64,000 nucleotides of DNA from NCBI GenBank assembly GCA_964534555.1, contig CAZHRK010000003.1:1-64000 (forward strand), written 5' to 3'. The notes below the pieces were generated by a model. It was not told the DNA's origin and searched no databases. It was given only the letters and a program-made list of their open reading frames with translations. Of this stretch, positions 23,091 to 48,096 are shown piece by piece. The DNA comes from an uncultured Pseudomonadota bacterium (GTDB lineage Bacteria > Babelota > Babeliae > Babelales > RVW-14). Within the stretch, counting starts at the first letter, position 1. Each line of letters starts with the position of its first letter. Both the position numbers and the translations under genes were made by a program.

Positions 23091-23216
23091 TTTGTTTCTA
23101 ACTGAATTATTAGCTTTACGCTAAGACTAAAAACCCCAGTTTTAATCTTACCTGATATCTATACAATGATTTAGGTGATTAGATTGGGGTTTTTTAGGTT
23201 TAAAGGGGCAAGTCAT

Positions 23217-24824
23217 ATGGTTTTTAATAAGCTTCTTATTTTTATGCTCATGGTTTGTCATCAGCTTTTACAGGCTGGTGTAGAGCTGCAAGTTTCTGAT
23301 AAAACAGTAAGTCATGAAGAAGCTGCTTATACTTTGCGCCGTAAAAAACGTATTGATGAATCATTTGCCAAACAGTTTGGTCTTGAGTCCTCATGGCGCC
23401 ATTACTTAGTTGGTACAAAAGCGCCTCGTGTTGCCCTCTGCTTTAGTGGTGGTGGGTGCCGCGCTATGTTGCAATCATTAGGTGCGCTTAAAGCAGCGCA
23501 GAATAATGGCTTACTAGACCTGACCACTTACATGTCGTCACTTTCTGGCTCAACATGGGCATTAATGCCATGGCTTGCATCAGACAAAACGCTTGATGAG
23601 TATATTTCATACATCCAAAAACGCCTGAGCATTTCTGTTGCATCACACTTGTATACTATTTTGACAACGAATAGTGATAAAATTAAATCCTTAAAAGGCC
23701 GCACAGATGCTGGGCTTGAGCTGAATGATATTTACGCAAGCTTATTGCTGAGCATTACGCTTAGGCATAGTGTCCATAATCCGTTTGATGTAACGCTTGC
23801 AGACATTGCTAAAAAGCGTTTTGCGCCAGAGTGTAGCGCTGATGTTCCGTATCCTTTTGCAACTGCAGTCTCAGGTGGGTCCAAGCTACACCATCATTGG
23901 TTTGAGTTTTCACCGTTTTCATTTGGACACTCAACAATCGGCCATATTCCATCAAATTGCTTGGGTAATACCTTCGTTAACGGTATTGGGGTAAAACAAC
24001 ACGCACAGCCAAAATTAGCCTATCTTATGGGGATGTGGGGAAGCGCTTATGCCGTTGATGGTTTGCGCCTTCTTGTTGAGCTTGGTTTTGGTTATAACCC
24101 GTCAAAAAATTTAGTTATAAACACCATAAAAAATATTATGCCATCAATACTGACCGGCGATGTGCTGGCTGATTATCTTGATGACGCACGTTTTAATCTT
24201 TTGCTTGATAAAAACCATTTTGCACCAGCGGTTAGAAACCCATTTTTTGCTAAAAAGAAGCCTGGCTTTATAAACCATTATTTTGGTAGCCAGACTATTG
24301 AGCTTGCTCATGTTGATGAGCTTCCGCTTGTTGATGGTGCTCATGACATGCTTTGGGCTGCATCAATAGATGGCACACAAAATCGTGGCTTTGCTATGAA
24401 CTTAGGTATTGTTCCGCTTTTGCACCCGAGCAGGGAAGTTGATGTCATCATAGCAATCGATAGCTCAGGAGACCTTGATGGTGCGCCATCATTAGTCGCT
24501 GCTCAGCTCAGAGCGCAGGAGCTTGGATTACCTTTCCCTAAAGAAAAAGTACTAGAGCAGTCAGCGGGGACAAAAATTCGTGTTTTAGAGGGTGACGCAA
24601 ACACTCCAACCATTATTTATGTTCCGTGCTTGCCTGTGGTAGAAGAGTTATCTCGAGTAAATTCTGCGCAGCCTGATTCTGATTACGCAGCAACAACGAA
24701 TTTTAGTTATTCACATGAGCACTCAGCGTATGTCATAAAACGAGGACAAGTTGCTCTTGAGGTTGCAATGCCAGTCATTAAGCACGTGATCTTTGATCGC
24801 TATAAGAAGTCAACGTACTTCTAG
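23217..24824 (+). CDS. secreted cytosolic-PLA2-type (PLA2_B / lysophospholipase catalytic domain) lipase
   Basis: Signal peptide. LCFSGGGCRAMLQSLGALKAAQNNGLLDLTTYMSSLSGSTW matches the cPLA2 GGGxR(A)M...G(I/L)LD..TY..GLSGSTW block, with oxyanion Arg and nucleophile Ser in GxSGS. Confidence 0.7.
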   Translation: MVFNKLLIFMLMVCHQLLQAGVELQVSDKTVSHEEAAYTLRRKKRIDESFAKQFGLESSWRHYLVGTKAPRVALCFSGGGCRAMLQSLGALKAAQNNGLLDLTTYMSSLSGSTWALMPWLASDKTLDEYISYIQKRLSISVASHLYTILTTNSDKIKSLKGRTDAGLELNDIYASLLLSITLRHSVHNPFDVTLADIAKKRFAPECSADVPYPFATAVSGGSKLHHHWFEFSPFSFGHSTIGHIPSNCLGNTFVNGIGVKQHAQPKLAYLMGMWGSAYAVDGLRLLVELGFGYNPSKNLVINTIKNIMPSILTGDVLADYLDDARFNLLLDKNHFAPAVRNPFFAKKKPGFINHYFGSQTIELAHVDELPLVDGAHDMLWAASIDGTQNRGFAMNLGIVPLLHPSREVDVIIAIDSSGDLDGAPSLVAAQLRAQELGLPFPKEKVLEQSAGTKIRVLEGDANTPTIIYVPCLPVVEELSRVNSAQPDSDYAATTNFSYSHEHSAYVIKRGQVALEVAMPVIKHVIFDRYKKSTYF

Positions 24825-35866: not shown

Positions 35867-38800
35867 CTATTTCTTTTTAGCGGCTTTCTTTGACGCTGCT
35901 TTTTTAGCCGCAGGCGCACCTTTTGTTGCTTTTTTAGGCGCTGTTTTTACTACTGTTTTTGCCGGTGCCTCTGCTTCTGATCTCTTTTCAGCTGCGCTAG
36001 CAGCTGGTGCTTTATCTTCAGCTGCTTCTTTTGCTGGGGCTGGTTTTTCATCGCTTTCATCAGGCACTGCCGCTTTAGGCGCAGCAACTTTCTTACCGCT
36101 GAGCAGCCTATTATTAAGCGTGATATTTCTGAATGTCACCGGTGTTTCCCAGCAGCTTAGTCCTATCCAGCTTATGCCTTCAATAGGATATGGGTCCGTC
36201 CATGTGAGCGTTGTGCCATTAGCAGCCTGAATCGTTATTGTTCCGCTGCGTAGTGTGATAGTGATTTTAGTTGGTTGGAATGCATTCAGCACACCACTTG
36301 CAAATGCTTTCTTTGTGACGGATTTAAATGCTTTGCCAAGGCTTTGTAGTCTCATCGCAAGACAGCTGTTATCAAATGCTCCGAAATGTAATTCATAAAG
36401 TTCTTTGCCTGAATTGCGCACCATGCTGCTATCATCAGCAAAACAAACCATAGCGTCTTTAAGTCCCTCGACTTCAAAGCTCAGTGAGAGTTCATTTGTT
36501 GTGTCGCTTGTTACTGGTAGCCAGATATACTCACCATAACATTTATCAATTCGTAGTGAGCTGCTTGTTCTTAAAATCTGGTGAGCCATTTTGTTTGCCC
36601 AAACATAAACAACCTCACGTTGGTCTGATCCTGCGGGAATAAGGAAGCTGTTATTAATCGCTGATAGTAGCAAGTTAAGCATGCTGTTGATAACGCGTGG
36701 GTTTGGTGTAGCTGAGTCATAAAGTGTTGGGTAGCTCGTGATCAAAAGCTCAATTATGTCATTTATTTTTTGAGCTACAAAATCAGAAACAACGTATGAG
36801 TGCGTTAGCAGGTAGATCACGTCTTGTGTCATAACGACAAGGCGCTCGAAGTTCTCTGGCGTAGTTGGTTGGAGTGAGCTTGTTGCTCTCAGTGTTGCCT
36901 CAGCTGTCTTACGATTATTTCTTGCATCCTCTGGCACCATCGCTTCTCCCAGTGGGATGCGTTCTGGTGCGTCGACAAACACATAGCTATCGTGGCTTTT
37001 GAATGCAAATTTTGCTTGTCCAGCGATAATGTTAGCATTAAATTTTGCTTGTGCGGCAGCGGTTTCTAATTCAAGCGCGCGCTGTTGTGCTGCAGCAGCA
37101 GATTCAGCGCCAGAGAGATCTCGTTGCGCGGCTGCGACATATGCTTGACTTGACATGCCTGCTGTAATAATAGCTGCAGTACCAGATGCGGCGGCAAATC
37201 CGGCACCCACACCGGCGATAATAATATTGTCACTCATTGCCAGCGCGCCACCAACCTTAGCACCCACCGTTGCGGTTGTATCTGCAATTTTAAGGAGCGA
37301 GTCTCCTTGAGCTCGACTCACATCACCTTGGGCGCGGGCGAGTTCTTTAAGTCTCTCACCATCAGCGCGCATGATGTCTGCTTTTTGTCGCTCAAGTTCT
37401 GCTGAAGCAGCAGCCTGCACGATCATCTGTTTGATTTTTATTTCTTGTGGGTTTTCAGGTGCTTTTGTCCAATCAAGCTTTGGCGCACCATCTGGCATAA
37501 CCGTGAGTGTAAAGTAATACAGTGCGCCTTGTTGCGGTGTTGCTCCGGCATAAAACGTGGTGTTGTTTACCATGTCGTCAAATTTTACAGACTCGTTTAC
37601 CTGAGAGACTCTGTATGAAAAAGGAAGGATGATGGTGATATCGCCTTCATAAATATTACTGTCGCTTGTAGCTGTTTTGCGTGCGTATTGGGTTGAGCGC
37701 TCGAGTATGAGCTGAACCGCATCAGCTATTTCAACTTCTTTAATAAGCGCATCAGGGGCATCGGTTGTAAATCCAACTTCTCTGATATCTGTAAGTGGGT
37801 TTACATCTTGGTAGACAAATGATGTATCGTTTCCGATATTGCCGTACCCAATAATAAAACGACCATTATTGTAGCTCACCCAAGGCGTAATCTCGCTGTC
37901 TTTTGACAGGTAAAGACCGTCTATTTCAACAACATCGCATGATCCGCGCTGGACGTACGCACCTTTAATGAATTTATAAATTACAATTTTCTTAAAATCA
38001 TCATCACCAAAGGTAATCTTGTAATGTGGTTTTGTAAGGTCTTGCCCTTGTGCCAAAATGAGGGAAGTTTTACCGCTTGCTTTTAGCGTAAAGCCAAGGG
38101 AGCCTTGATCGGCTATTCTGAGTGGTGTTTTGGTCCAAAGTGCCGCGCTTCCTCCAGCGGGAACAGTAAGTGTTTCAGTGCCTTCGTAATAAATACGATC
38201 CTGTGGTCTTGTGACGATTGGTCCATAAATTTGTATTTCTGCAAATTCAACAAGCGTTTTATTTGAGGCAAAGCCTATGCGGTTTACAAGTGGCATTGGA
38301 TCGTCTGTGCGATACGCCATAAAGACGTTCTCGCCCGGTAGCCCCATCCCGACAAGGATCAGTCCGTTGTCGTATGTCACCCAGTATGGTGTAAAGTTTC
38401 CAGGAGAAACAGCTGCTAGCGGGTTTTCTTTAACATCAATAACACACACGACATCGTCAACTGGTTCGTTGTTTTGTATTGTGCGCTGAATGATTGATGC
38501 TTGGGTGTTTTTAGCCCCACCAATAACAACTTTGTAGTCAAATGTATTATTCACCTCGTGGCCAAGGACAACCTGAATATCACCTTGATCATCAGCTTTT
38601 GCAACAAATCCAACGGTGCATCGATTATTAACTGGGAACGATTCATTAAGCCATGCTGCGCCTTTTCCAAGAAGCGGTTGCAGCTTAAGTGATGCTCCTT
38701 TTTCAAGCTTGATTGATGTTTGCGCTGATCCTGAAACTGTCGGTCTTTGGCGTACTGGAATTTCAAAATCAACAGAGTCTTGTGGTGGCACATTCCCGCC

Positions 38801-40822
38801 GTTTCCAAGGTCAATAATTTCAAACGCTACAGCAGAAAGATCCGATGGATCAAGAGCGCTGCCATCAGCATTTGTGGTAACTGCTATCGTAAGGTCACGC
38901 ATTTCTGTGCGCCCCGGAATAACTTTTTTAGTAATTCCCGCGCTGGTAGCAATTGTTGATAGCCATTGCTCTGATTTGTTCCAGCCTTTACCGTTCCAGG
39001 TGTAGAGCATTTGTTCTGCTGTATCGATCATATAAACCATCTCGTTGTTGCGAACCGAGATTTGTTTGATCTGTGGATTGCCTGCTGGAGCATCAACAAC
39101 AGCCCAGCTCTTAGCGTCGTAGTCATAGCGCCAGACACGGTTTTTATCATCAACTGCCCATACAGCGAGCTCTTCTGATGCAGACATAGTCACAATTTTT
39201 GCGCCTTGTGGCGATTGTGCTTTCCAGCTTTCACCGTTGTAGCTATAAATCGCGCCATCAACACCAAGGCCCCACATTTCACGGGGTGATATAATTGAAA
39301 TCTCTTTAAAACCAGGGCCTTTATCAAGCGGTGCCCAGCTATTATTTTGTCTCAAATAAGGCACGCCATCATTATCGAGCGTTACTGTTTGCCCCGCGCT
39401 GTTGACATCGACGTATTTAAATTTGAATGAAGATGGAATTTGCGTCCAGGTGCCGTTTTCAAATTTAAAGAGGCTTCCTTCCTGCGCTATTGCGTAAGCA
39501 ATTTCAGCCGATTGGAGCGCGAGTGATTGGAAGTAAATAAATGGCTCTTCATCAAGTACAGGATAGCTATTAAGCGTTGCAAGTGATCCTTCATCAGCGC
39601 CCGCACGAACGCTTAAAATACCGTTTTCGTTTAATAGTTTAAAAACCTGTTTAATGCTCATCTCATGACGAATTCTTATTTGTCCGTCGTCATCGGCAGT
39701 CCACCAGCCAAACTTGTTTGCTGTTCTGTCCCAATAATCACGACGTGCTGCGCCCCAGTTCCATGAGCTGTCTTGGCCATCATCTCTAAGGCTTTGAAGT
39801 GAAAAATCTGTGCAGTAGCGGAGCGGTTGGTTTGCAGGTGTTTTATTTATATCTTCATTATTCCATGTTGTTCTGAGCCATAGGCGCATTAATGTTCTGC
39901 CATCACCATTATTTGCAGGTTCTCTGTAACAAATAATATCCGCGTCGTTTTCACGAAATACAAAAAAGTTATTAAGGCCAGCATTTCTAAAATTAATATC
40001 ATGCCTGCTCAGCACTGCTTGTCCGTTTGTTTCGCTCTTGCCACCAAAAGTTACTGTATATTGAGCGTTTGGAGCGATATTACGAGCAATATCACCTTTA
40101 AGCGGTCTGTCATCACCATCATGGCGGTAGAATCGTTTTCTTCTTTGTGAGTAAATCGTTACTTTGTCACCGTATTTTACTTGCGGTTTATACACACCCC
40201 AAAGTGATGGTGAACGCAGAATTTGTTCGGTATCTTTTTCTACTTTAACCTCGACAGTCCCTTGATAAGGCATTAATACACCGCTCAAGCGATTTTTGAG
40301 ATGGCATTTGCCCAGATCTGAGCCAAGCAGTTCCCAGTGGGCGGCTTTGTCTTCATCATCGTCAAATGCTGTTGATGGGAAGCCTACAGGAGAGCGATTG
40401 CCTGGTGCGTACTGGCATGTAAGATCTTTTGTTATCGTGCTCTCAATCCCAATCCAATCTCTAAGTGGTGGTGATGAGAGCTTTCTTACGATGGTGAACT
40501 CTGTGGCTTTGTCGCTCGCATCGTTTGCATCAGCAACAAAGATCCATTTTTTATCGGCGTTTAACCTTGCTGCATAGTACTTTCCGCTTGCAATATGGCG
40601 TATGCGTACTGTTGTTCCATAAGGAAGGCTGTCATGTAATGTTTTTTCAAATGCGATTGATGCCGGATAAGGTGAGCCGTTTCTAATTCTATCAAGTACT
40701 GCATAACCAAATTTAGGCAGCTCAGCAAGAATGTCGGGAGTTTGAGTTGCGAATTTATTATTACTTTGCGGTATGAGCAAAAACGCTACACACCACAATA
40801 GCTTGAAGATATAATTTTTCAT
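35867..40822 (-). CDS. giant (~1650 aa) secreted protein with tectonin/tachylectin-type beta-propeller repeats, a duplicated ~130-aa domain and a histone-H1-like Lys/Ala/Pro tail
   Basis: Start MKNYIFKLLWCVAFLLIPQS (signal). W-x-G...VWGVN-like repeats (WAPLDKGPGFKEISII..MWGLGVDGAIYSY, WKAQSPQGAKIVTMSA..VWAVDDKNRVWRY, WAVVDAPAGNPQIKQISV..VYMIDTAEQMLYTW). Internal repeat ...FTPYWVTYDNGLILVGMG.. / ..ITPWVSYNNGRFIIGYG... C-terminal AAPKAAVPDESDEKPAPAKEAAEDKAPAASAAEKRSEAEAPAKTVVKTAPKKATKGAPAAKKAASKKAAKKK. Confidence 0.7.
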   Translation of the reverse strand: MKNYIFKLLWCVAFLLIPQSNNKFATQTPDILAELPKFGYAVLDRIRNGSPYPASIAFEKTLHDSLPYGTTVRIRHIASGKYYAARLNADKKWIFVADANDASDKATEFTIVRKLSSPPLRDWIGIESTITKDLTCQYAPGNRSPVGFPSTAFDDDEDKAAHWELLGSDLGKCHLKNRLSGVLMPYQGTVEVKVEKDTEQILRSPSLWGVYKPQVKYGDKVTIYSQRRKRFYRHDGDDRPLKGDIARNIAPNAQYTVTFGGKSETNGQAVLSRHDINFRNAGLNNFFVFRENDADIICYREPANNGDGRTLMRLWLRTTWNNEDINKTPANQPLRYCTDFSLQSLRDDGQDSSWNWGAARRDYWDRTANKFGWWTADDDGQIRIRHEMSIKQVFKLLNENGILSVRAGADEGSLATLNSYPVLDEEPFIYFQSLALQSAEIAYAIAQEGSLFKFENGTWTQIPSSFKFKYVDVNSAGQTVTLDNDGVPYLRQNNSWAPLDKGPGFKEISIISPREMWGLGVDGAIYSYNGESWKAQSPQGAKIVTMSASEELAVWAVDDKNRVWRYDYDAKSWAVVDAPAGNPQIKQISVRNNEMVYMIDTAEQMLYTWNGKGWNKSEQWLSTIATSAGITKKVIPGRTEMRDLTIAVTTNADGSALDPSDLSAVAFEIIDLGNGGNVPPQDSVDFEIPVRQRPTVSGSAQTSIKLEKGASLKLQPLLGKGAAWLNESFPVNNRCTVGFVAKADDQGDIQVVLGHEVNNTFDYKVVIGGAKNTQASIIQRTIQNNEPVDDVVCVIDVKENPLAAVSPGNFTPYWVTYDNGLILVGMGLPGENVFMAYRTDDPMPLVNRIGFASNKTLVEFAEIQIYGPIVTRPQDRIYYEGTETLTVPAGGSAALWTKTPLRIADQGSLGFTLKASGKTSLILAQGQDLTKPHYKITFGDDDFKKIVIYKFIKGAYVQRGSCDVVEIDGLYLSKDSEITPWVSYNNGRFIIGYGNIGNDTSFVYQDVNPLTDIREVGFTTDAPDALIKEVEIADAVQLILERSTQYARKTATSDSNIYEGDITIILPFSYRVSQVNESVKFDDMVNNTTFYAGATPQQGALYYFTLTVMPDGAPKLDWTKAPENPQEIKIKQMIVQAAASAELERQKADIMRADGERLKELARAQGDVSRAQGDSLLKIADTTATVGAKVGGALAMSDNIIIAGVGAGFAAASGTAAIITAGMSSQAYVAAAQRDLSGAESAAAAQQRALELETAAAQAKFNANIIAGQAKFAFKSHDSYVFVDAPERIPLGEAMVPEDARNNRKTAEATLRATSSLQPTTPENFERLVVMTQDVIYLLTHSYVVSDFVAQKINDIIELLITSYPTLYDSATPNPRVINSMLNLLLSAINNSFLIPAGSDQREVVYVWANKMAHQILRTSSSLRIDKCYGEYIWLPVTSDTTNELSLSFEVEGLKDAMVCFADDSSMVRNSGKELYELHFGAFDNSCLAMRLQSLGKAFKSVTKKAFASGVLNAFQPTKITITLRSGTITIQAANGTTLTWTDPYPIEGISWIGLSCWETPVTFRNITLNNRLLSGKKVAAPKAAVPDESDEKPAPAKEAAEDKAPAASAAEKRSEAEAPAKTVVKTAPKKATKGAPAAKKAASKKAAKKK

Positions 40823-40947
40823 AAGAAAGCCTTTATGGATCAGGAGCTTTGATTGATTAATTTGTCTCAATGTAAGAACCTGCTGCACTGTAAATCAAGA
40901 ATATGGTATGCTCATGGCCTAAAGTTTAGTAGGGCCTCTTAGGTAAG

Positions 40948-42000
40948 GTGCAGGCAGATATGGAGCTTTTATCACCAGTTGAGCTTTTGAGTCTTCAAGA
41001 GATGCAGGAAGACAAACAAATTACGTTTGAGCCAATGTCTTTTGATGAATATCTTGGGCAGCGAATCATTAAAGAAAAGCTTAAGCTCTACACTCAAGCT
41101 GCAAAAATGCGTCAAGAGCCAATGGACCATTTGTTGTTTTTTGGTCCGCCAGGGCTAGGCAAAACAACACTTGCTCGTGTAATGGCAAAAGAGCTTGGTG
41201 TTGGTATTAAGGTAACAAGTGCACCTATTCTTGAGCGCACCGGTGATTTAGTCGCAATTTTATCTGGGGTTGGTCCATCTGAGATTTTGTTTATCGATGA
41301 AATCCATCGTCTCCCAAAAAACGTTGAAGAAATTTTATACAGCGCAATGGAAAACTTTTGCGTCGATGTCATTATTGGTCAGGGGGCTGGCGCTAAATCG
41401 ATCAGATTGCCGCTTAATCGTTTTACTCTAATCGGTGCGACAACAAAGACATCTCTTGTTTCTGCTCCGTTGCAAACGCGATTTGGTATTGTTGAACGGC
41501 TTGATTTTTATGAGCCTGAAGAGCTGCGTGATATCGTGCTTCAGAATGCTCAGTTTCTTGGGCTTGCAATGTTGCCAGAAGCAGCCTTAGCCGTAGGTAG
41601 TCGTGCACGAGGAACACCTCGAATTGTAAAAAGAATTTTGCGTCGAGTTCGTGATTTTGCTCAGGTTAATAACCATTCGCTTGTTGATATGGATGTTGTA
41701 AATCAAGCCTTAGGCTTTTTGGGCATCGATGAAGATGGTCTTAATAAACTAGACCGTGAGCTTTTGAGCTTTATTTTGCGTGAGTTTGATGGCGGCCCTG
41801 CGGGTGTTGAAACGCTAGCAGCATTAACGGGTGAGGACAGAGAGACGCTTGAAGATGTTGTTGAGCCTTATTTGCTCCGCATGGGATTATTACAGAAATC
41901 ACCTCGTGGTCGCATGATCCCGCCTAAGAAAATTCCTTTGCTCAAGAAGAAGTTATTGGGAATTCAGGTTGAAAATGCGCAGAGTTTGCTTTTTGACTGA
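40948..42000 (+). CDS. ruvB: Holliday junction branch migration ATPase RuvB
   Basis: EYLGQ, Walker A FFGPPGLGKTTLA, Walker B ILFIDEIHRL, sensor and winged-helix regions; upstream start ambiguity. Confidence 0.85.
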   Translation: MQADMELLSPVELLSLQEMQEDKQITFEPMSFDEYLGQRIIKEKLKLYTQAAKMRQEPMDHLLFFGPPGLGKTTLARVMAKELGVGIKVTSAPILERTGDLVAILSGVGPSEILFIDEIHRLPKNVEEILYSAMENFCVDVIIGQGAGAKSIRLPLNRFTLIGATTKTSLVSAPLQTRFGIVERLDFYEPEELRDIVLQNAQFLGLAMLPEAALAVGSRARGTPRIVKRILRRVRDFAQVNNHSLVDMDVVNQALGFLGIDEDGLNKLDRELLSFILREFDGGPAGVETLAALTGEDRETLEDVVEPYLLRMGLLQKSPRGRMIPPKKIPLLKKKLLGIQVENAQSLLFD

Positions 42001-42299
42001 TGCTTTGCCATACTAAACGAAGTTTTATTATCACAATAACGCGCAAGGAGTACCCATGAACTCATTCAAAAATCATGGCCCTTGCTTGAAGCTCAATCCA
42101 AGCAACGGTCAGTCAGTACTAATAAACATTTCTAAGCGTGCAGTCTCTATGATTGTATCTCTTGTGAGTGTGGTGTCTGCTCATGCGTATTGCCGTTGTA
42201 TTAGTCATCATACGCAGGCCTGGCGGCTTATAGCTTCATAACCTCGCGTCTTCCTTCTGTTTTATATTTTGCTAACCCCTAAAAATTAAGGGGAATCTC

Positions 42300-43439
42300 A
42301 TGACTATTCGACTCGTTATGTCGACGGGCTTTGCCTTGTTTGCAATGCTTTTTGGTGCTGGAAATATTATTTTCCCACTCGTTCTTGGCGCTCATTCAGG
42401 AGATAAAGTTCTGTATGCGCTTGCTGGTTTTGCTATATCTGGACTTTGTATTCCGCTTATTGGTGTGATCGCTGCTCTTATGTATCAAGGCGATTATGAA
42501 AAACTTCTTAGCCATCTCGGTCGAGTGCCGAGCTCCGCGCTTATTGCGCTCTGCATGATGTTGATTGGACCTTTTGGGTGCATACCTCGTTGTATGTCCA
42601 TAGCTCACAGTGCTGTAAGCTGGCACATTCCTTCCCTACCGCTCCTTTTATTTAGTGCACTTGCTGCCGGCGTTGTGTATGTTTGCGCTGCCCAGCGCGG
42701 CGCGCTTGTAAATGTTTTGGGGAGTGTTTTGGGCCCTATAAAACTTACACTCTTGCTTGGGCTTGTTGTTATTGGTGGTGTGAATGCTGGTAAGATGCCC
42801 GCAGTTGATCTTGCAAAAAGCACGCTTTTTCTGCAGGGGCTATTTGATGGTTATGGCACCATGGATCTGCTCGGAGCGCTTTTCTTTGCAGGGATCTTAG
42901 CACGAGGCCTGAAAGGTAAATACCAACAAATATCACGACGCGACTTTATGCTTATGACTGTGGTGATAGGGGTTATCGGTATTGTGCTTTTGGGTATTGT
43001 CTATGGCGGCTTCTTTTTTGTTTCTGCAGCTTATGCGGGGCAACTTGTTCACCTTGAGCGAGGGCAGCTGTTGTCTGGCCTTGCCACGCTTGTCCTTGGG
43101 CAGTATGGTGGAATGGTGGCAAATATAACCATTAGCCTTAGCTGCTTAACAACAGCAATAGCGCTGACATCAGTTTTTTCTGACTATATTCGCGGGTTAA
43201 GCGGCAACAGACTTTCGTATAAAACCTGTGTTGCAGGGACTGTGTTGATTGCAACATGTATGACAACGCTGGGCTTTCAAAAAATTATGGAGCTCATTTA
43301 TCCTTTGATTGGCATGTGTTATCCAATCCTGCTTATTGTTGCGTGTGCTGGGCTTTTACATAAAGTTATTGGTGTAGTTGTTCCCCGCCACTCAATGTAT
43401 GCAGCATTTATGCTTTTAATGCTTATGAAATTGTTTTAA
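42300..43439 (+). CDS. brnQ: branched-chain amino acid transport system II carrier (LIVCS family)
   Basis: N-terminal GFALFAMLFGAGNIIFPLVLG hallmark, 12 TM. Confidence 0.8.
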   Translation: MTIRLVMSTGFALFAMLFGAGNIIFPLVLGAHSGDKVLYALAGFAISGLCIPLIGVIAALMYQGDYEKLLSHLGRVPSSALIALCMMLIGPFGCIPRCMSIAHSAVSWHIPSLPLLLFSALAAGVVYVCAAQRGALVNVLGSVLGPIKLTLLLGLVVIGGVNAGKMPAVDLAKSTLFLQGLFDGYGTMDLLGALFFAGILARGLKGKYQQISRRDFMLMTVVIGVIGIVLLGIVYGGFFFVSAAYAGQLVHLERGQLLSGLATLVLGQYGGMVANITISLSCLTTAIALTSVFSDYIRGLSGNRLSYKTCVAGTVLIATCMTTLGFQKIMELIYPLIGMCYPILLIVACAGLLHKVIGVVVPRHSMYAAFMLLMLMKLF

Positions 43440-43446
43440 TCAAAAA

Positions 43447-43476
43447 ATACCCCCAAGCAAATCAGCTTGGGGGTAT
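43447..43476. terminator. bidirectional terminator (12-bp stem)
   Basis: atacccccaagc-aaatca-gcttgggggtattttt between brnQ stop 43439 and minus-strand RING gene stop 43479. Confidence 0.55.
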
Positions 43477-43478
43477 TT

Positions 43479-43871
43479 TTATGCTATAAAGTTTTCTACG
43501 ACGGCGTAGGCAAGTGCTAAAATTATCAGTGCGGCCTCTTTCTTAAATGGTGGCCTTTTTTCTTTATAAAGCCGCCTGCGCTCAATCGTTTCTGTATACT
43601 GCCTGCACAAAGGACATTCATTCTTTCCTGATGCAGTAATCCATGCAGATAGGCATTCAGGGTGAATTATGTGGTGGCATTCGGTCATGTTTTCATCTAT
43701 CTCTTCAGCTGGTTCTAGACAAACGCAGCATCTATTTTCGTTTTCAAGGGATTGTTGACTAGCAGGGTGAATTGGCTGTGTTGTAAAGTTGACTGTAAAA
43801 AGTGATAGTGCAAAAAGAATTATAAGCATTTCGCTTTCGAAGGGGTATAAACTGACCGATATGATAAACAA
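43479..43871 (-). CDS. membrane-anchored/secreted RING-H2 zinc-finger protein (eukaryotic E3-ligase-like)
   Basis: CCVCLEPAEEIDENMTECHHIIHPECLSAWITASGKNECPLCRQ = C-x2-C-x14-C-x1-H-x2-H-x2-C-x14-C-x2-C. N-terminal hydrophobic segment; start may be TTG at 43871 or ATG at 43829. Confidence 0.7.
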   Translation of the reverse strand: MFIISVSLYPFESEMLIILFALSLFTVNFTTQPIHPASQQSLENENRCCVCLEPAEEIDENMTECHHIIHPECLSAWITASGKNECPLCRQYTETIERRRLYKEKRPPFKKEAALIILALAYAVVENFIA

Positions 43872-43970
43872 GGGCCGTAATTATATCAGTCTGATTGATC
43901 TCTTGCAATCATAAAGTAGCCCTGAATCAATATTTAGGACTACTTTATGACTATTGTCGACAGTTTAAAT

Positions 43971-45425
43971 TTAATTGATTTGTGATAATGCGAGTGTTAA
44001 AGCTTTTGCTATAGCATCTGTATTATGTGTGACAGCGTTTTCGATTGATTTATACAAGTCAAAAAACTCTTTGCCGGTATAGCTAAATTTACTTGTTGGG
44101 AAATCAAGCTTGTTCGGGACGTGGATAATAATTGGGGTCTGCTTATCTGTCGGGTCTGCCCAGATAGAGAGAGGTTTTTCAGCAAGCTGAGCATAGTCGA
44201 TTTTCGGGAATTTATAGCCGTGTGCTCGTGCCCAATTTTCAACTTCACGCATGTCAGTACCGAGTGCTGAATTTGCATCAGTCCCCGCGTCACAAACAAA
44301 ATAAATCTTTACGCCGCGTCTGAGCAGGGGAGGGAATGGAATATTTGTTGCCATACCAGCATCAACAAACGTTAGTTTTCCTGCTTTTCCTAGTGGGGCC
44401 TGCAGTCCATGAACAAAATTAGGTATTTCAGGCGCGCTTATCCGTGCATTATTTCCCCAAAACCAATTAAACCAGCTTGATGAAATATCGATGTTGTGGG
44501 AGACCTGGAGTCCTTCTTTTATAAACTGCAGTGCGTCTATGACGCTTCCTGCGTATGCAGAGCCAAATATTCCCATCATAAATGCAAGGTTTTCCCCGGG
44601 TGAGGTATCTTGTGTGATTCCATTTTTAAATGTTTTGCCGAAAAGTTGTGGTTGAATCCAGCCTTTAAAATAGGTGCTCCCGATCTCAAATGGTGAGTAT
44701 TCAACCCATTGGTAATCTGGATTTGTTTGACCAATAATTGAGGTGAAAAGTGGTACAGGGTAGTCGCCAGATAGCGTATGGGGTGCTAGGTCCTCAAGAT
44801 TGAGATCAAGCCCATGATTAGTTGGGCTTGATAGGAAAACATTACCTATCAGGTTGCCCCATAAATCATTCAGCCCAATTGATTTGCCCTGCCATGCTTT
44901 GCTCGCTATTTTTCTTGAGATCGCTTTTTCATCAATATTTTTTAAGCTAAAAGCTTCGTAAAGTTTGCTTTGTAAGCGTGAAGTAAGTGCAATTGGAGAA
45001 ACTTTATGTGTGTACCATGATGCGGTTGTCCAGGTTGATCCTGATAGGCTTGCAATATATGTCACAGCATCAAGGAGTCCAATCCGCTCAAGGCCTCTTA
45101 AGAGCCCGAGTGTTGCAATTGCAGCGCGAAACCCCCCACCACTTGCAGCTACAGCGATCATAGGGATATTTTGACCAAGCGGATACGATTGCCCTAAAAG
45201 TTTTTGTAGCGCGCTTCTATTGCGGCTAAGTCTGTTTCGTAGGGCTGCAAGTTCATTTATTGAAGGAGCATCCCCCTGACGAACTTGGCCAATAATAGGA
45301 CCAGTAGTTGCTTGTTGAGAAATTCCCTTTTTTTGATAATGAATAACTTTGCTGAGGGTGTGGCTGTACGCTTGGCTTGTGCTTAAAACTATAGCCATGA
45401 GCATGATCATGCATGTTGATAGCAT
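43971..45425 (-). CDS. secreted cytosolic-PLA2-type (PLA2_B) lipase, second paralog
   Basis: Signal peptide; IAVAASGGGFRAAIATLGLLRGLERIGLLDAVTYIASLSGSTW matches cPLA2 GGGFRAM...LSGSTW catalytic block. Confidence 0.7.
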   Translation of the reverse strand: MLSTCMIMLMAIVLSTSQAYSHTLSKVIHYQKKGISQQATTGPIIGQVRQGDAPSINELAALRNRLSRNRSALQKLLGQSYPLGQNIPMIAVAASGGGFRAAIATLGLLRGLERIGLLDAVTYIASLSGSTWTTASWYTHKVSPIALTSRLQSKLYEAFSLKNIDEKAISRKIASKAWQGKSIGLNDLWGNLIGNVFLSSPTNHGLDLNLEDLAPHTLSGDYPVPLFTSIIGQTNPDYQWVEYSPFEIGSTYFKGWIQPQLFGKTFKNGITQDTSPGENLAFMMGIFGSAYAGSVIDALQFIKEGLQVSHNIDISSSWFNWFWGNNARISAPEIPNFVHGLQAPLGKAGKLTFVDAGMATNIPFPPLLRRGVKIYFVCDAGTDANSALGTDMREVENWARAHGYKFPKIDYAQLAEKPLSIWADPTDKQTPIIIHVPNKLDFPTSKFSYTGKEFFDLYKSIENAVTHNTDAIAKALTLALSQIN

Positions 45426-45612
45426 AGACTCTCCTTAGACTGTGTTTATGACACGATGAATCAAGGCATTTGTAGCCTTTTTTTATCAAAATCAACAGCC
45501 TAATACAGCACAATCCAAGCGCTAATTGCAAGAGAGGTTGCGCTTTTTTAGGTTAGGTCTATACTACCACCCCCCAAATCACTAGGTTTATTCTCATAAG
45601 GAGCGATTATTA

Positions 45613-46386
45613 GTGTATCGACTGACTGTTAGTTTTATCTTTTTAGTGTCGTTTTTTCTCCCCAATATTTTATCTCGGTCTATTACAGGTTATGAGCATC
45701 CTCTGGGCACAACGCTCAACCGTGTAGAAGAAGTTCCTGAGCATGAGGTTGTCGTTGGTCAAATGATTGATGATCTTGATGGTGACGCTGCAGATGATAT
45801 GGGTGAGAACGAATCGCTGCAAGAAGATCACCAAGAAGCTCCAGTAGATGAAATATGTCTTTTTTGTGTTAATGAAATTACAGCTCTTAATAAACTCCTT
45901 GATGAGTTTTGTATTCTGTCATGTGGGCACAGTGTCCATAAAGATTGTTTGCTCGCATTTTTTCAAGAGCATACAGATACGATTGAAGAGGGTGATGATG
46001 CATTTGAATTTGTTTGCAATGCACATGAGGGACATTCTGAAGACGTTGTGTTTGACCTGCAAGACGCTTTAGATGCTGATCTGCCTGTGATTTTATTTGG
46101 GCTTCTGCAAAATCAAAATCCAGATCTTACACCAACATCGCTTGTTGATTTGGGTGCAGACTTTTTTGAAGGCATGCCATTTTGGTTGCTTTTTATTAGC
46201 AGAATTCTTCCTAAATCAGTTGGTTATTTATATGCCAATAATATTCCATTTTTGCACCACACGTTTGATAATAAAAACCCAATTGAGTGGGCGCATGAAT
46301 TAGGCTTTGAGGGTATTGCCCAAAGGTTTTCTGTGCTGAGAGATCAAGGTCGTTGTATTCCGATACCACTTCCAGATCAGAATTAA
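45613..46386 (+). CDS. secreted RING-variant zinc-finger protein with C-terminal ankyrin-like repeat, paralog A
   Basis: GTG start with AAGGAG RBS; signal peptide; CLFCVNEITALNKLLDEFCILSCGHSVHKDC...FEFVCNAHEGH (C-x2-C-x16-C-x1-H-x2-H-x2-C...C-x2-H); C-terminal NNIPFLHHTFDNKNPIEWAHELGFEGIAQRF. Confidence 0.5.
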   Translation: MYRLTVSFIFLVSFFLPNILSRSITGYEHPLGTTLNRVEEVPEHEVVVGQMIDDLDGDAADDMGENESLQEDHQEAPVDEICLFCVNEITALNKLLDEFCILSCGHSVHKDCLLAFFQEHTDTIEEGDDAFEFVCNAHEGHSEDVVFDLQDALDADLPVILFGLLQNQNPDLTPTSLVDLGADFFEGMPFWLLFISRILPKSVGYLYANNIPFLHHTFDNKNPIEWAHELGFEGIAQRFSVLRDQGRCIPIPLPDQN

Positions 46387-46416
46387 TAGGTTTGAAGATT
46401 ATTTACGGGGTGCACT

Positions 46417-47232
46417 ATGAAGGTGTTACATTTTATAGTATTGCTTAGTGTTACTATCTTGCATGGCTTTGATCTTCAAGCGCGTGTTAGGTTGCCTTGG
46501 CCCTTGGTTCCAGGGGCAAGCGTTGCGCTGCCAAGTCATGGCGCGCCGATTGAAGGCCCGCTTGTTGATGTTCTTCTAAATCCTTTCCCATTACCAGATG
46601 AGGATGAAGCACCGGTTTCTCGATGCATGTTTTGCACAGAGTCTTTTCTTGAAGGACAGGTAAAGGTAGTTTTTGAGTGCGGTGATAGTGGACATAAAAA
46701 TTGTTTGGTTAATTTCTTCCTTGAGCATGTTCATGAGGCATCTCAGTTTTTAGCCACGTTCAACTTTGCTTGCCATCATCATGAAGAGCCACATGATTTA
46801 TTTATTGATCTTGGGACTGCTTTAGCAATTGACTCACCCGAAATATTCTTTGTTCTCCTTGCATCGTCTGAAGACGGAATGGCAATGTCAGAGCTTTTGA
46901 ATCTGAATTTCCCAGGTGATCCAAAACCGTACTGGCTTAAGATTATAGAGTCTGAGGCGCGTGCTATTTTGTCATATATTACCAGCAATAATATACCGTT
47001 TCTTCATTATGTTTATGAGGGGAAAACTCCTGTAGAATGGGCAGAAGACCTAGATCTTGAGGATTATTATCTTGCTCTTTATAACCTGCAAGCAGCGGGT
47101 CGCTGTCTTCCTGCGCCGTCATCATCATTAGGGCTTCTGGTAGGTGGCTATAGTGGTCTTTATGGCGCTATTTCGCCAGTTTCAAGCGATGATGATTCGC
47201 TTTCGATCCATTCGCTTGATACAAATATTTAG
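46417..47232 (+). CDS. secreted RING-variant zinc-finger protein, paralog B (tandem duplicate)
   Basis: Signal peptide; CMFCTESFLEGQVKVVFECGDSGHKNC...FACHHHEEPH; C-terminal NNIPFLHYVYEGKTPVEWAEDLDLEDYY aligns with paralog A. Confidence 0.5.
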   Translation: MKVLHFIVLLSVTILHGFDLQARVRLPWPLVPGASVALPSHGAPIEGPLVDVLLNPFPLPDEDEAPVSRCMFCTESFLEGQVKVVFECGDSGHKNCLVNFFLEHVHEASQFLATFNFACHHHEEPHDLFIDLGTALAIDSPEIFFVLLASSEDGMAMSELLNLNFPGDPKPYWLKIIESEARAILSYITSNNIPFLHYVYEGKTPVEWAEDLDLEDYYLALYNLQAAGRCLPAPSSSLGLLVGGYSGLYGAISPVSSDDDSLSIHSLDTNI

Positions 47233-47373
47233 TAGCAATCTCGATATTCAGTGAGCAAAATCCTTTGTTGATCTTGTGAGTCGACAAAACAAAAACTGCT
47301 TTGTAAAATTACACGGTATGATTTTAAAGAAAATAAGCGATTGCAAAGATAATTTATCATTCAGGAGTCTGCC

Positions 47374-48096
47374 ATGTCCGGTCATTCCAAGTGGGCTACG
47401 ATTAAACATAAAAAAGCCAAAGAAGATTCTAAGCGCGGTAAGATTTTTACGAAGATTGTTCGTGAAATCACCGTAGCTGCACGTGAGGGTGGGGGTGATC
47501 CTGCTGGAAATCCTAAGCTCAGGCTTATTTTGGAAAAGGCAAAAGAGTGCAATATGCCAGCTGATAACGTTAGCCGTGCTATTAAAAAAGGTACGGGTGA
47601 GCTTGGTGGTGGCGCTATGTACGAGCCTTTTACTTACGAAGGGTATGGGCCTGCAGGTATCGCCGTTATGGTTGAGACGTTGAGTGATAATAAAAATAGA
47701 ACTGTCTCTGAGTTGCGCCATCAATTTACAAAAGCTGGTGGGAATCTAGGAGAAAACGGCTCTGTAGCCTGGATGTTCGAGCATAAAGGCGTAATCCGAG
47801 GCGTGACGTCAGCATCAGAAGATACTCTTCTTGAAGCATTAATGGATGCCGATATTGATGATCTTAAAGTTGTTGATGATAACGTTGTGATTATTGTTAA
47901 ACCGACATCGCTTGATGCTGCAAAGCGTCTTGCCGCTACTGTCGGTGTTAAAATTGAACAAGCTCAGCTTGAGTGGGTTGCTAAAAATCCGATCTCTGTG
48001 CCTGCGGGTGAGCAGGAAGACGTCGTCTTCAAATTTCTTGAAGCACTTGATGATCTTGATGATGTACAAAACGTTTATGCAAATATTGGCGATTAA
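47374..48096 (+). CDS. yebC: YebC/PmpR family DNA-binding transcriptional regulator
   Basis: MSGHSKWATIKHKKAKEDSKRGKIFTKIVREITVAAREGGGDPAGNPKLRL.. textbook YebC N-terminus. Confidence 0.85.
   Translation: MSGHSKWATIKHKKAKEDSKRGKIFTKIVREITVAAREGGGDPAGNPKLRLILEKAKECNMPADNVSRAIKKGTGELGGGAMYEPFTYEGYGPAGIAVMVETLSDNKNRTVSELRHQFTKAGGNLGENGSVAWMFEHKGVIRGVTSASEDTLLEALMDADIDDLKVVDDNVVIIVKPTSLDAAKRLAATVGVKIEQAQLEWVAKNPISVPAGEQEDVVFKFLEALDDLDDVQNVYANIGD

Follow-up and report, generated by a model that had tools for sequence, protein, structure and literature searches.

The window (the whole 64-kb stretch of contig that was analysed) carries on its minus strand a short gene for a RING-H2 protein, located between a convergent brnQ-like gene and a gene for a PLA2_B lipase (Table 1).

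The RING gene, its flanking signals and its genomic slot

In the initial annotation, the gene was taken as the maximal open reading frame 43479..43871(-), which has 130 codons counted from a TTG. This frame exists and contains the RING peptide quoted there (CCVCLEPAEEIDENMTECHHIIHPECLSAWITASGKNECPLCRQ), but its first 14 codons are probably non-coding. The database protein (P0001, 116 aa) starts at the ATG at 43829, and the sister strain (contig L083) differs by a 1-nt indel located 14 nt upstream of this ATG (ataCCCCttc vs ata-CCCttc). Since the upstream frames differ between the two strains, and both have the same frame from the ATG onward, the 14 codons are most likely a 5' untranslated leader, and the ATG at 43829 is probably the true start, giving a protein of 116 aa. 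Residue numbers below refer to this protein.

The promoter-like site upstream of the leader, read from 43908 to 43880, is a consensus match only, and sites of this kind are no more numerous in the region than expected from shuffled sequence. At the 3' end of the gene, direct folding of the RNA revealed a hairpin overlooked by the terminator scan (-27.1 kcal/mol, z = -7.4, 0/200 shuffles as stable), with the stop codon of the RING gene sitting inside it. In the sister strain, one pair of the terminator stem is altered on both sides, from A-U to G-C, a compensatory substitution. The hairpin is common to the RING gene and the convergent brnQ-like gene and, as judged from its predicted fold and the following U-run, is a bidirectional intrinsic terminator.

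The RING gene is one of five genes in the 5.4-kb gap between ruvB (40948-42000) and yebC (47374-48096), a position where, in most Babeliales loci containing both genes, yebC-yicC directly follows ruvB. Among the relatives compared, this slot has no insert in one locus (L004) and PLA2_B only in three others (L005, L006, L007), and an ortholog of the RING gene was found in 0 of the 38 Dependentiae loci examined (ruvB neighbourhoods). In L005, an unrelated 168-aa signal/TM protein takes the corresponding place downstream of PLA2_B. The PLA2_B gene itself (Pfam PLA2_B, 88.2 bits), which is cPLA2/lysophospholipase-like and lies upstream of the RING gene, encodes a signal-peptide-like N-terminus and has orthologs at the same position in L005, L006 and L007. 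The two tandem paralogs share 35% identity (E = 2e-31), begin with hydrophobic, signal-peptide-like N-termini, and contain a degenerate RING-like motif (CxxC...CGHxxHxxC...CxxH), which matches zf-RING_2 weakly (18.5 bits, below cut-off) and a home-built RING-H2 profile at E = 2.7e-5 and 1.7e-4; no homologs were found elsewhere, either in the relatives' loci or by database search. The home-built profile matched 4 ORFs in the 64-kb window and 0 in 527 kb of the 38 other Dependentiae loci, a comparison in which the loci sample the ruvB neighbourhood only and the profile includes the query. The RING gene occupies a lineage-specific accessory slot together with other secreted, eukaryote-like proteins.

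Searches of the 64-kb window by tblastn with ubiquitin and UBE2D2 returned nothing, and no ubiquitin, E1 or E2 gene is present there, so that host enzymes are the only plausible partners for the RING protein. This result bears on the idea that the gene is part of an endogenous prokaryotic Ub-like conjugation cassette, either a Caldiarchaeum-type Ub/E1/E2/Rpn11 operon or a bacterial Prok-RING system. Archaeal operons do hold small stand-alone RING-H2 proteins (PMC5654768, PMC11354881), and the present protein is alike in size and in ligand type (C3H2C3). However, the genes flanking it encode a BrnQ-like transporter and a PLA2_B lipase, neither of them an E1, E2, Ubl or JAB protein, the RING gene has a promoter-like site and a terminator of its own, and its score against Prok-RING_4 (see below) is far under the cut-off. 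With the empty tblastn searches added, we give this explanation almost no credence.

A second RING-H2 gene is located elsewhere in the window, at 10366..10726(-), with its RING in the +1 frame. A 46-aa signal-peptide-like ORF ends in ...VRECPYLS*, and a +1 shift after TGT CCC would continue it as ...RE-C-P-I-C-LDAIEAEQEETTLPCRHSFHAPCITQARRHLNKCPLCR... On zf-RING_2, this RING scores 48.6 bits when repaired, and 45.2 bits as an unrepaired fragment. The same frame arrangement was found in a same-strain Logan contig recurring in four runs, and it is also conserved in the sister strain. Reading in the RING frame, the window strain shows a TAA shortly before the RING and lacks a start codon downstream of this TAA; the sister strain has an ATG-started ORF of 96 aa in that frame. 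The out-of-frame RING has a pN/pS of 0.25 (p = 0.0025). This gene is either a case of programmed +1 frameshifting on CCC-U or a young pseudogene shared by the two strains.

Table 1. Coordinates of the RING gene, its parts and its neighbours in the window
Feature	Position	Strand	Basis
RING-H2 CDS, 116 aa	43479..43829	-	ATG 43829, stop 43479-43481; database gene model
First 14 codons of the maximal TTG ORF (probable leader)	43830..43871	-	strain indel
Promoter-like site, TTGCAA-17 nt-(TG)TATAAT	43880..43908	-	consensus scan, 10/12 matches
Hairpin followed by U-run (predicted terminator)	43441..43483	.	RNA fold; strain comparison
N-terminal hydrophobic segment MLIILFALSLFTVNF, residues 1-15	43785..43829	-	Kyte-Doolittle, AF2
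RING-H2 domain, residues 34-76	43602..43730	-	Pfam, 91-sequence alignment, AF2, Foldseek
Basic cluster RRRLYKEKRPPFKK, residues 84-97	43539..43580	-	read from sequence
C-terminal hydrophobic helix KEAALIILALAYAVVENFI, residues 97-115	43485..43541	-	Kyte-Doolittle, AF2
Variable slot: brnQ, RING gene, PLA2_B, two paralogs	42001..47373	.	locus comparison
cPLA2/lysophospholipase-like PLA2_B gene	43971..45425	-	Pfam; orthologs
Two tandem paralogs, 257 and 271 aa	45613..47232	+	mutual identity, RING profile

RING domain, predicted fold and hydrophobic segments

The zinc ligands of the RING are C34, C37, C51, H53, H56, C59, C72 and C75, and their spacing (C-x2-C-x13-C-x1-H-x2-H-x2-C-x12-C-x2-C) is canonical C3H2C3, lying within the RING-H2 pattern that was applied (C-x2-C-x(9-39)-C-x(1-3)-H-x(2-3)-H-x2-C-x(4-48)-C-x2-C). 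The eukaryotic E3 spacing and the terminal CPLC pair reported in the initial annotation were thereby both recovered. Alignment to Pfam zf-RING_2 (PF13639), a check proposed there, gave 35.2 bits (E = 1.5e-8, gathering cut-off 27.3), and zf-ANAPC11 also matched (32.5 bits, cut-off 25). Of the Prok-RING families in Pfam, only Prok-RING_4 appeared at E<=1, with 12.0 bits against the 27 required, and assignment to a Prok-RING family was rejected. A sequence search of the PDB returned RING E3s only, namely RNF13 (4e-6), ARK2C/RNF165, Arkadia and rice EL5, with all eight ligands, the central-helix Trp and the CP-x-C-[RK] end matched in the alignments. W63 and P73 are each paired with an identical residue in RNF13 and ARK2C, and the Trp had been correctly placed at the E2-contact position.

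From the matches of an exhaustive search (described below), a 91-sequence RING-H2 alignment was built, in which no variation is seen at C34, C37, C51, C59, C72, P73 or C75, and conservation is at least 90% at H53, H56 and W63. An AlphaFold2 (AF2) model computed from this alignment has a mean pLDDT of 80, with the RING core mostly at about 90, and residues 41-50 at 71. Comparison of the model with the PDB using Foldseek yielded RING E3 domains only, with an rmsd of 2.0-2.9 Å over 47-57 residues to RNF125, RNF165, TRIM21 and RNF13, and several of the matched structures were solved with E2 or E2~Ub bound. The protein is predicted to adopt a cross-brace RING fold. The initial annotation had named an AlphaFold model as a further check, and a ligand spacing incompatible with a cross-brace as grounds for refutation; the canonical spacing and the RING-like model both point the other way.

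When all six-frame ORFs of the window and of related loci (about 0.5 Mb) were scanned with the regular expression C3[HC][HC]C3, matches were confined to the RING ORF, copies identical to it and a single ORF with no relation to them. The latter (L026 6731-7549) was rejected, having neither a Pfam RING match nor a match to the home-built RING profile. Taking pattern and profiles as the measure, the RING-H2 match of ORF 43479..43871 is well beyond chance.

Roles in E2~Ub binding are established for the hydrophobic residue at C1+2, the helix Trp, the Pro at C7+1 and the linchpin Arg in c-Cbl, RNF4, RNF38 and Arkadia. Putative contact residues of all four kinds are present in the 116-aa protein, as V36 (C1+2), W63 (central helix), P73 (C7+1) and R76 (C8+1), and at the level of sequence the domain possesses everything that a RING E3 requires for binding and activating E2~Ub.

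The N-terminal hydrophobic segment, MLIILFALSLFTVNF, has a Kyte-Doolittle 15-residue mean of 2.37, and is modelled by AF2 as a helix at residues 2-10 (pLDDT about 70). It is short (about 14 residues) and signal-peptide-like, with neither a positively charged n-region nor a clear AxA cleavage site, and the N-terminus would therefore be an atypical signal peptide; by sequence, residues 1-15 could serve as the h-region of a signal-peptide-like sequence or as a short anchor. A polar linker, TTQPIHPASQQSLENENR, occupies residues 16-33. At the other end of the protein, KEAALIILALAYAVVENFI has a Kyte-Doolittle 19-residue mean of 1.85, is modelled as a helix at residues 97-115 with pLDDT above 90, reaching almost to the C-terminus, and is identical in the sister strain; it is predicted to be a transmembrane or tail-anchor segment. 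The basic cluster RRRLYKEKRPPFKK is located on the RING side of this helix, and the net charge over residues 77-98 is +4. The hydrophobic segment and polar linker described in the initial annotation are both present; the segment is short, and the C-terminal TM helix had been missed.

In a simple hydropathy scan of 151 sequences from the exhaustive search, the combination of N-terminal hydrophobic segment, RING and C-terminal TM at so small a size was found only in the query and its sister ortholog; several other sequences of the 151 combine a RING with a C-terminal TM. With eukaryotic zf-RING_2 E3s (RNF13, ARK2C/RNF165, Arkadia, the ATL-family protein EL5, RNF24/RNF122), the protein shares the C3H2C3 ligands and their spacing, the predicted fold and the residues that contact E2, namely Val/Ile after C1, the helix Trp and the CP-x-C-R end. 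Unlike these eukaryotic RING-H2 E3s, the present protein is bacterially encoded, has only 116 aa, and has its RING bracketed by two hydrophobic segments; unlike Arkadia and RNF165, it has no dimerisation tail.

ATL, RNF24 and RNF122 proteins have an N-terminal hydrophobic segment and one RING-H2, an arrangement shared by the 116-aa protein. The ATL family is defined by a TM, a GLD and a RING-H2, with Pro before C3 and a 10-residue C6-C7 loop. The N-terminal hydrophobic/TM region has its counterpart in MLIILFALSLFTVNF, but ATL membership was rejected on the remaining features: the linker has no GLD, Glu precedes C3, and the C6-C7 loop has 12 residues. The PA-TM-RING (RNF13-like) family, marked by a lumenal protease-associated (PA) domain ahead of its TM segment and RING, was rejected on the basis of only 33 residues before the RING and no Pfam PA match, and the bacterial U-box (LubX, GobX, NleG, AvrPtoB C-terminal domain), a RING-like fold held together without zinc ligands, on the basis of all eight Cys/His zinc ligands being present. 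The likeness to membrane-anchored RING-H2 E3s of plants and protists claimed in the initial annotation holds at the domain level, and does not extend to either of the ATL and PA-TM-RING architectures. Classified by sequence, the protein is a member of the RING-H2 family in a new phylum, with an unusual, two-anchor miniature architecture.

Organism, relatives and selection

The adjacent RuvB is 60-82% identical to that of 38 MAGs labelled TM6, Dependentiae or Babeliales, and less than about 53% identical to others; by this marker, the carrier of the RING gene is a Dependentiae/Babeliales (TM6) bacterium. Three Logan assemblies, covering two strains and different sequencing runs, show the gene in the same surroundings, and the gene has a GC of 0.405 and a GC3 of 0.333, compared with averages of 0.424±0.024 and 0.349±0.051 for the genes of the window. 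The identical neighbours across assemblies and strains, together with the genome-typical GC, disfavour host contamination or a chimera, and the base composition also argues against recent transfer. The RING gene is a real bacterial gene; with its Dependentiae-like RuvB neighbour and the hydrophobic, anchor-like segments of its product, the initial description of a RING-H2 finger in a bacterial anchored protein is supported.

Among 5.8 billion proteins, a word-indexed search found nothing beyond the RING protein itself and its 90%-identical sister-strain copy. The exhaustive HMMER search, over 1.84 billion representatives, gave 1322 matches at E<=1e-3, all of them RING-only, with the query itself alone below 1e-30. 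The top-scoring non-self matches are proteins with 2-5 RINGs, whose score is summed across domains. Three bacterial-looking multi-RING matches (P0003, P0009, P0031; all with signal peptides, on contigs of 0.7-6 kb) were considered as possible Dependentiae proteins, but nothing else in common with the Dependentiae loci compared was found. Scans of JGI metagenomes and IMG/VR also gave RING-only matches, at 34-62% identity, with IMG/VR reaching only 35% over the RING. The best non-self matches reach about 30-55% identity, confined to the RING, and single out no donor lineage. Giant viruses (Cafeteria roenbergensis virus, Bodo saltans virus, mimivirids, marseilleviruses), which are likewise parasites of protists, also have many small stand-alone RINGs, and these are the top matches in the viral structure library (E 1e-4 to 1e-3); the likeness is confined to the RING fold (19-38% identity), and direct relatedness is unsupported.

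The sister-strain protein, 90% identical, is the only ortholog found. The two gene copies differ at 13 nonsynonymous and 14 synonymous positions, over 272 and 76 sites respectively, giving a dN/dS of 0.23 (Fisher p = 3e-4) from a comparison of two closely related strains only. All eight ligands and V36, W63, P73 and R76 are unchanged, and the differences fall mainly in the N-terminal linker. On the basis of these two strains, the RING gene is under purifying selection. Its dN/dS is significantly below 1 yet above that of the housekeeping neighbours (0.00-0.04), and the RING-like paralogs have values of 0.25-0.34; the RING gene is therefore functional and evolving faster than core genes, a pattern from two strains that fits a host-interaction gene.

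These data also address the suggestion that the gene is a decaying or functionless remnant of a piece of eukaryotic gene gained by horizontal transfer, or else a chimera with host DNA produced by the assembly. Such an origin would agree with a protein that is an orphan outside its RING, very short and devoid of a substrate-binding domain, and with a dN/dS exceeding that of housekeeping genes. It agrees poorly with the significant constraint and the intact ligands of both strains, with the identical context in independent assemblies, with the genome-typical base composition, and with a bacterial terminator bearing a compensatory substitution 3' of the gene, and it is considered very unlikely.

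Proposed function in a parasite of protists

Dependentiae are widespread and almost uncultured; to our knowledge, no specialised secretion system is known for them, and we know of no host-manipulation protein of theirs that has been characterised. They are obligate intracellular parasites of protists (PMC6561590). In the cultured member Chromulinavorax, 44% of CDS have signal peptides, no metabolic pathway is complete, and the Sec system together with outer-membrane vesicles was proposed as an effector route (PMC6561590).

Other intracellular bacteria have horizontally acquired E3 domains, often in lineage-specific, fast-evolving sets (PMC3417536, PMC4209131, PMC3486910), including RING/U-box gene families in Neochlamydia (PMC4209131) and a putative RING ligase in Cardinium (PMC3486910). 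The 116-aa protein would follow the same logic as these effectors (Neochlamydia NEX1b, Cardinium CAHE_p0026, Legionella LubX/GobX, and those of Amoebophilus and Protochlamydia). It differs from this group in coming from another phylum, in being a canonical zinc RING-H2 and not a U-box, in having no LRR, ankyrin or TPR substrate-binding module, in the putative membrane anchors on either side of its RING, and in having no type III or type IV secretion context. A literature search of incomplete coverage found no report of RING E3s in Dependentiae.

Taken together, the identity of the RING, the E2~Ub-contact residues and the lack of Ub, E1 or E2 genes in the window favour a host-directed role, and the 116-aa protein is, in our moderately confident view, a minimal, membrane-anchored, eukaryote-derived mimic of a RING-H2 E3 ubiquitin ligase, directed at the protist host. 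Export or release through the Sec pathway, as proposed for effectors of Dependentiae, would be directed by the N-terminal hydrophobic stretch. Anchoring would fall to the C-terminal helix, with the basic cluster on its RING side, and may place the protein in a membrane of the host or of the vacuole so that the RING looks into the host cytosol, where it would recruit a host UbcH5-type E2~Ub, leading to ubiquitination of neighbouring membrane proteins or of itself. With no substrate-binding domain of its own, the protein would owe its specificity to where it is located.

Membrane topology counts against the E3-mimic reading, since in a bacterial inner membrane the positive-inside rule applied to RRRLYKEKRPPFKK would hold the RING in the bacterial cytoplasm. 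The protein could accordingly be pictured as a hairpin in the bacterial inner membrane (N-out, RING cytoplasmic, C-out), with the zinc finger performing a ubiquitin-free task in the bacterium, for example in protein-protein interaction, zinc handling or the quality control of membrane proteins. Hydrophobic ends flanking the RING, an N-terminus without a typical signal-peptide n-region, and the fact that no secretion machinery was identified in this analysis are all in keeping with a hairpin of this kind. It does not account for a domain of the eukaryotic zf-RING_2 type rather than Prok-RING_4, for the retention of V36, W63, P73 and R76, for a window with no Ub, E2 or other conjugation gene, or for a lineage-specific gene in an accessory slot among secreted eukaryote-like proteins of an obligate intracellular parasite (PMC6561590). 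An inner-membrane role is regarded as rather unlikely, and the host-directed E3 mimic is retained as the preferred reading.

A more far-reaching proposal, which we hold to be distinctly unlikely as a whole, is that the lineage has a private arsenal of small exported RINGs, made up of the 116-aa protein, the two degenerate paralogs and the +1-frame RING-H2. The 116-aa protein would then embody an effector design of a new kind, in which a minimal E3 is exported by Sec, enters the membrane of a host organelle in the manner of a tail anchor and ubiquitinates by proximity, with no substrate module or injection system, and the second gene would be expressed via programmed +1 frameshifting at CCC-U.

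The gain from a host-directed E3 mimic in this group would be incremental, the principle being well established for chlamydiae, Legionella, Amoebophilus, Cardinium and giant viruses. If true, it would extend the strategy of stealing the host's E3 domain to another phylum, one without a known injection apparatus, and a very small canonical RING-H2 that keeps every E2-activating residue would be an easy first candidate for biochemistry in Dependentiae.

Variable gene content around ruvB

Comparison of the window with ruvB-neighbourhood loci from other Dependentiae/Babeliales metagenome-assembled genomes (L003-L040) showed that the ruvB-yebC junction (window 42001-47373) forms a Babeliales-wide hotspot where gene content varies, with inserts of 0 to >5 kb that differ from lineage to lineage. 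Several relatives keep the 1673-aa protein beside ruvB, with identities of 26-36%, and in its sister-strain ortholog Tectonin was also recorded.

Features in the window and on three short metagenomic contigs (L084, L085, L086)
Feature	Location	Strand	Remark
Split RING-H2 gene	10366-10726	-	Broken by frameshift
302-aa protein	11092-12000	-	Adjoins split RING-H2 gene
PLA2_B protein	23175-24824	+	cPLA2/lysophospholipase-type
1673-aa protein	35867-40888	-	Methyltransf_FA domain at C-terminal end
PLA2_B protein	43971-45425	-	cPLA2/lysophospholipase-type; adjoins RING gene
Tandem paralog 1	45613-46386	+	35% identical to paralog 2
Tandem paralog 2	46417-47232	+	35% identical to paralog 1
P0003	L084 3891-5312		Metagenomic protein
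P0009	L085 271-1401		Metagenomic protein
P0031	L086 21-698		Metagenomic protein

RING-like paralogs and metagenomic RING-H2 proteins

Both tandem paralogs have signal-peptide-like N-termini and carry a degenerate RING-like motif, CxxC…CGHxxHxxC…CxxH, which fell under the Pfam cut-off, yet was picked up by the RING-H2 profile made in this analysis. They were orphans with the sister strain as the sole exception, and gave dN/dS values of 0.25-0.34. Among the top matches to the 116-aa RING-H2 protein encoded between ruvB and yebC were P0003, P0009 and P0031, which combine bacterial-type signal peptides with one to three RING-H2 domains in tandem.

A further RING-H2 gene split by a frameshift

A further small RING-H2 gene lies elsewhere in the window, where a signal-peptide-like 46-aa ORF, ending in AVRECPYLS and a stop codon, is followed by a RING-H2 domain in the +1 frame, which scored 48.6 bits on zf-RING_2 once one C was dropped from a CCC run. 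The same split-frame layout recurs in a same-strain contig from the Logan assemblies of sequencing runs and in the sister strain. For the out-of-frame RING, pN/pS was 0.25 (p=0.0025). Its GC3, at 0.526, departs from what is typical of the genome. The gene either undergoes programmed +1 frameshifting at CCC-U or is a young pseudogene common to the strains. The adjoining 302-aa protein has a signal-peptide-like N-terminus and a weak match to Zeta_toxin (kinase-like).

PLA2_B proteins

The PLA2_B domain, chiefly eukaryotic, occurs in two proteins in the window; in the one adjoining the RING gene, the N-terminus resembles a signal peptide. PLA2_B proteins were also found beside ruvB in other Babeliales genomes (L014, L015), in up to three tandem copies. 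Together, the PLA2_B proteins look like a phylum-wide family of secreted lipases.
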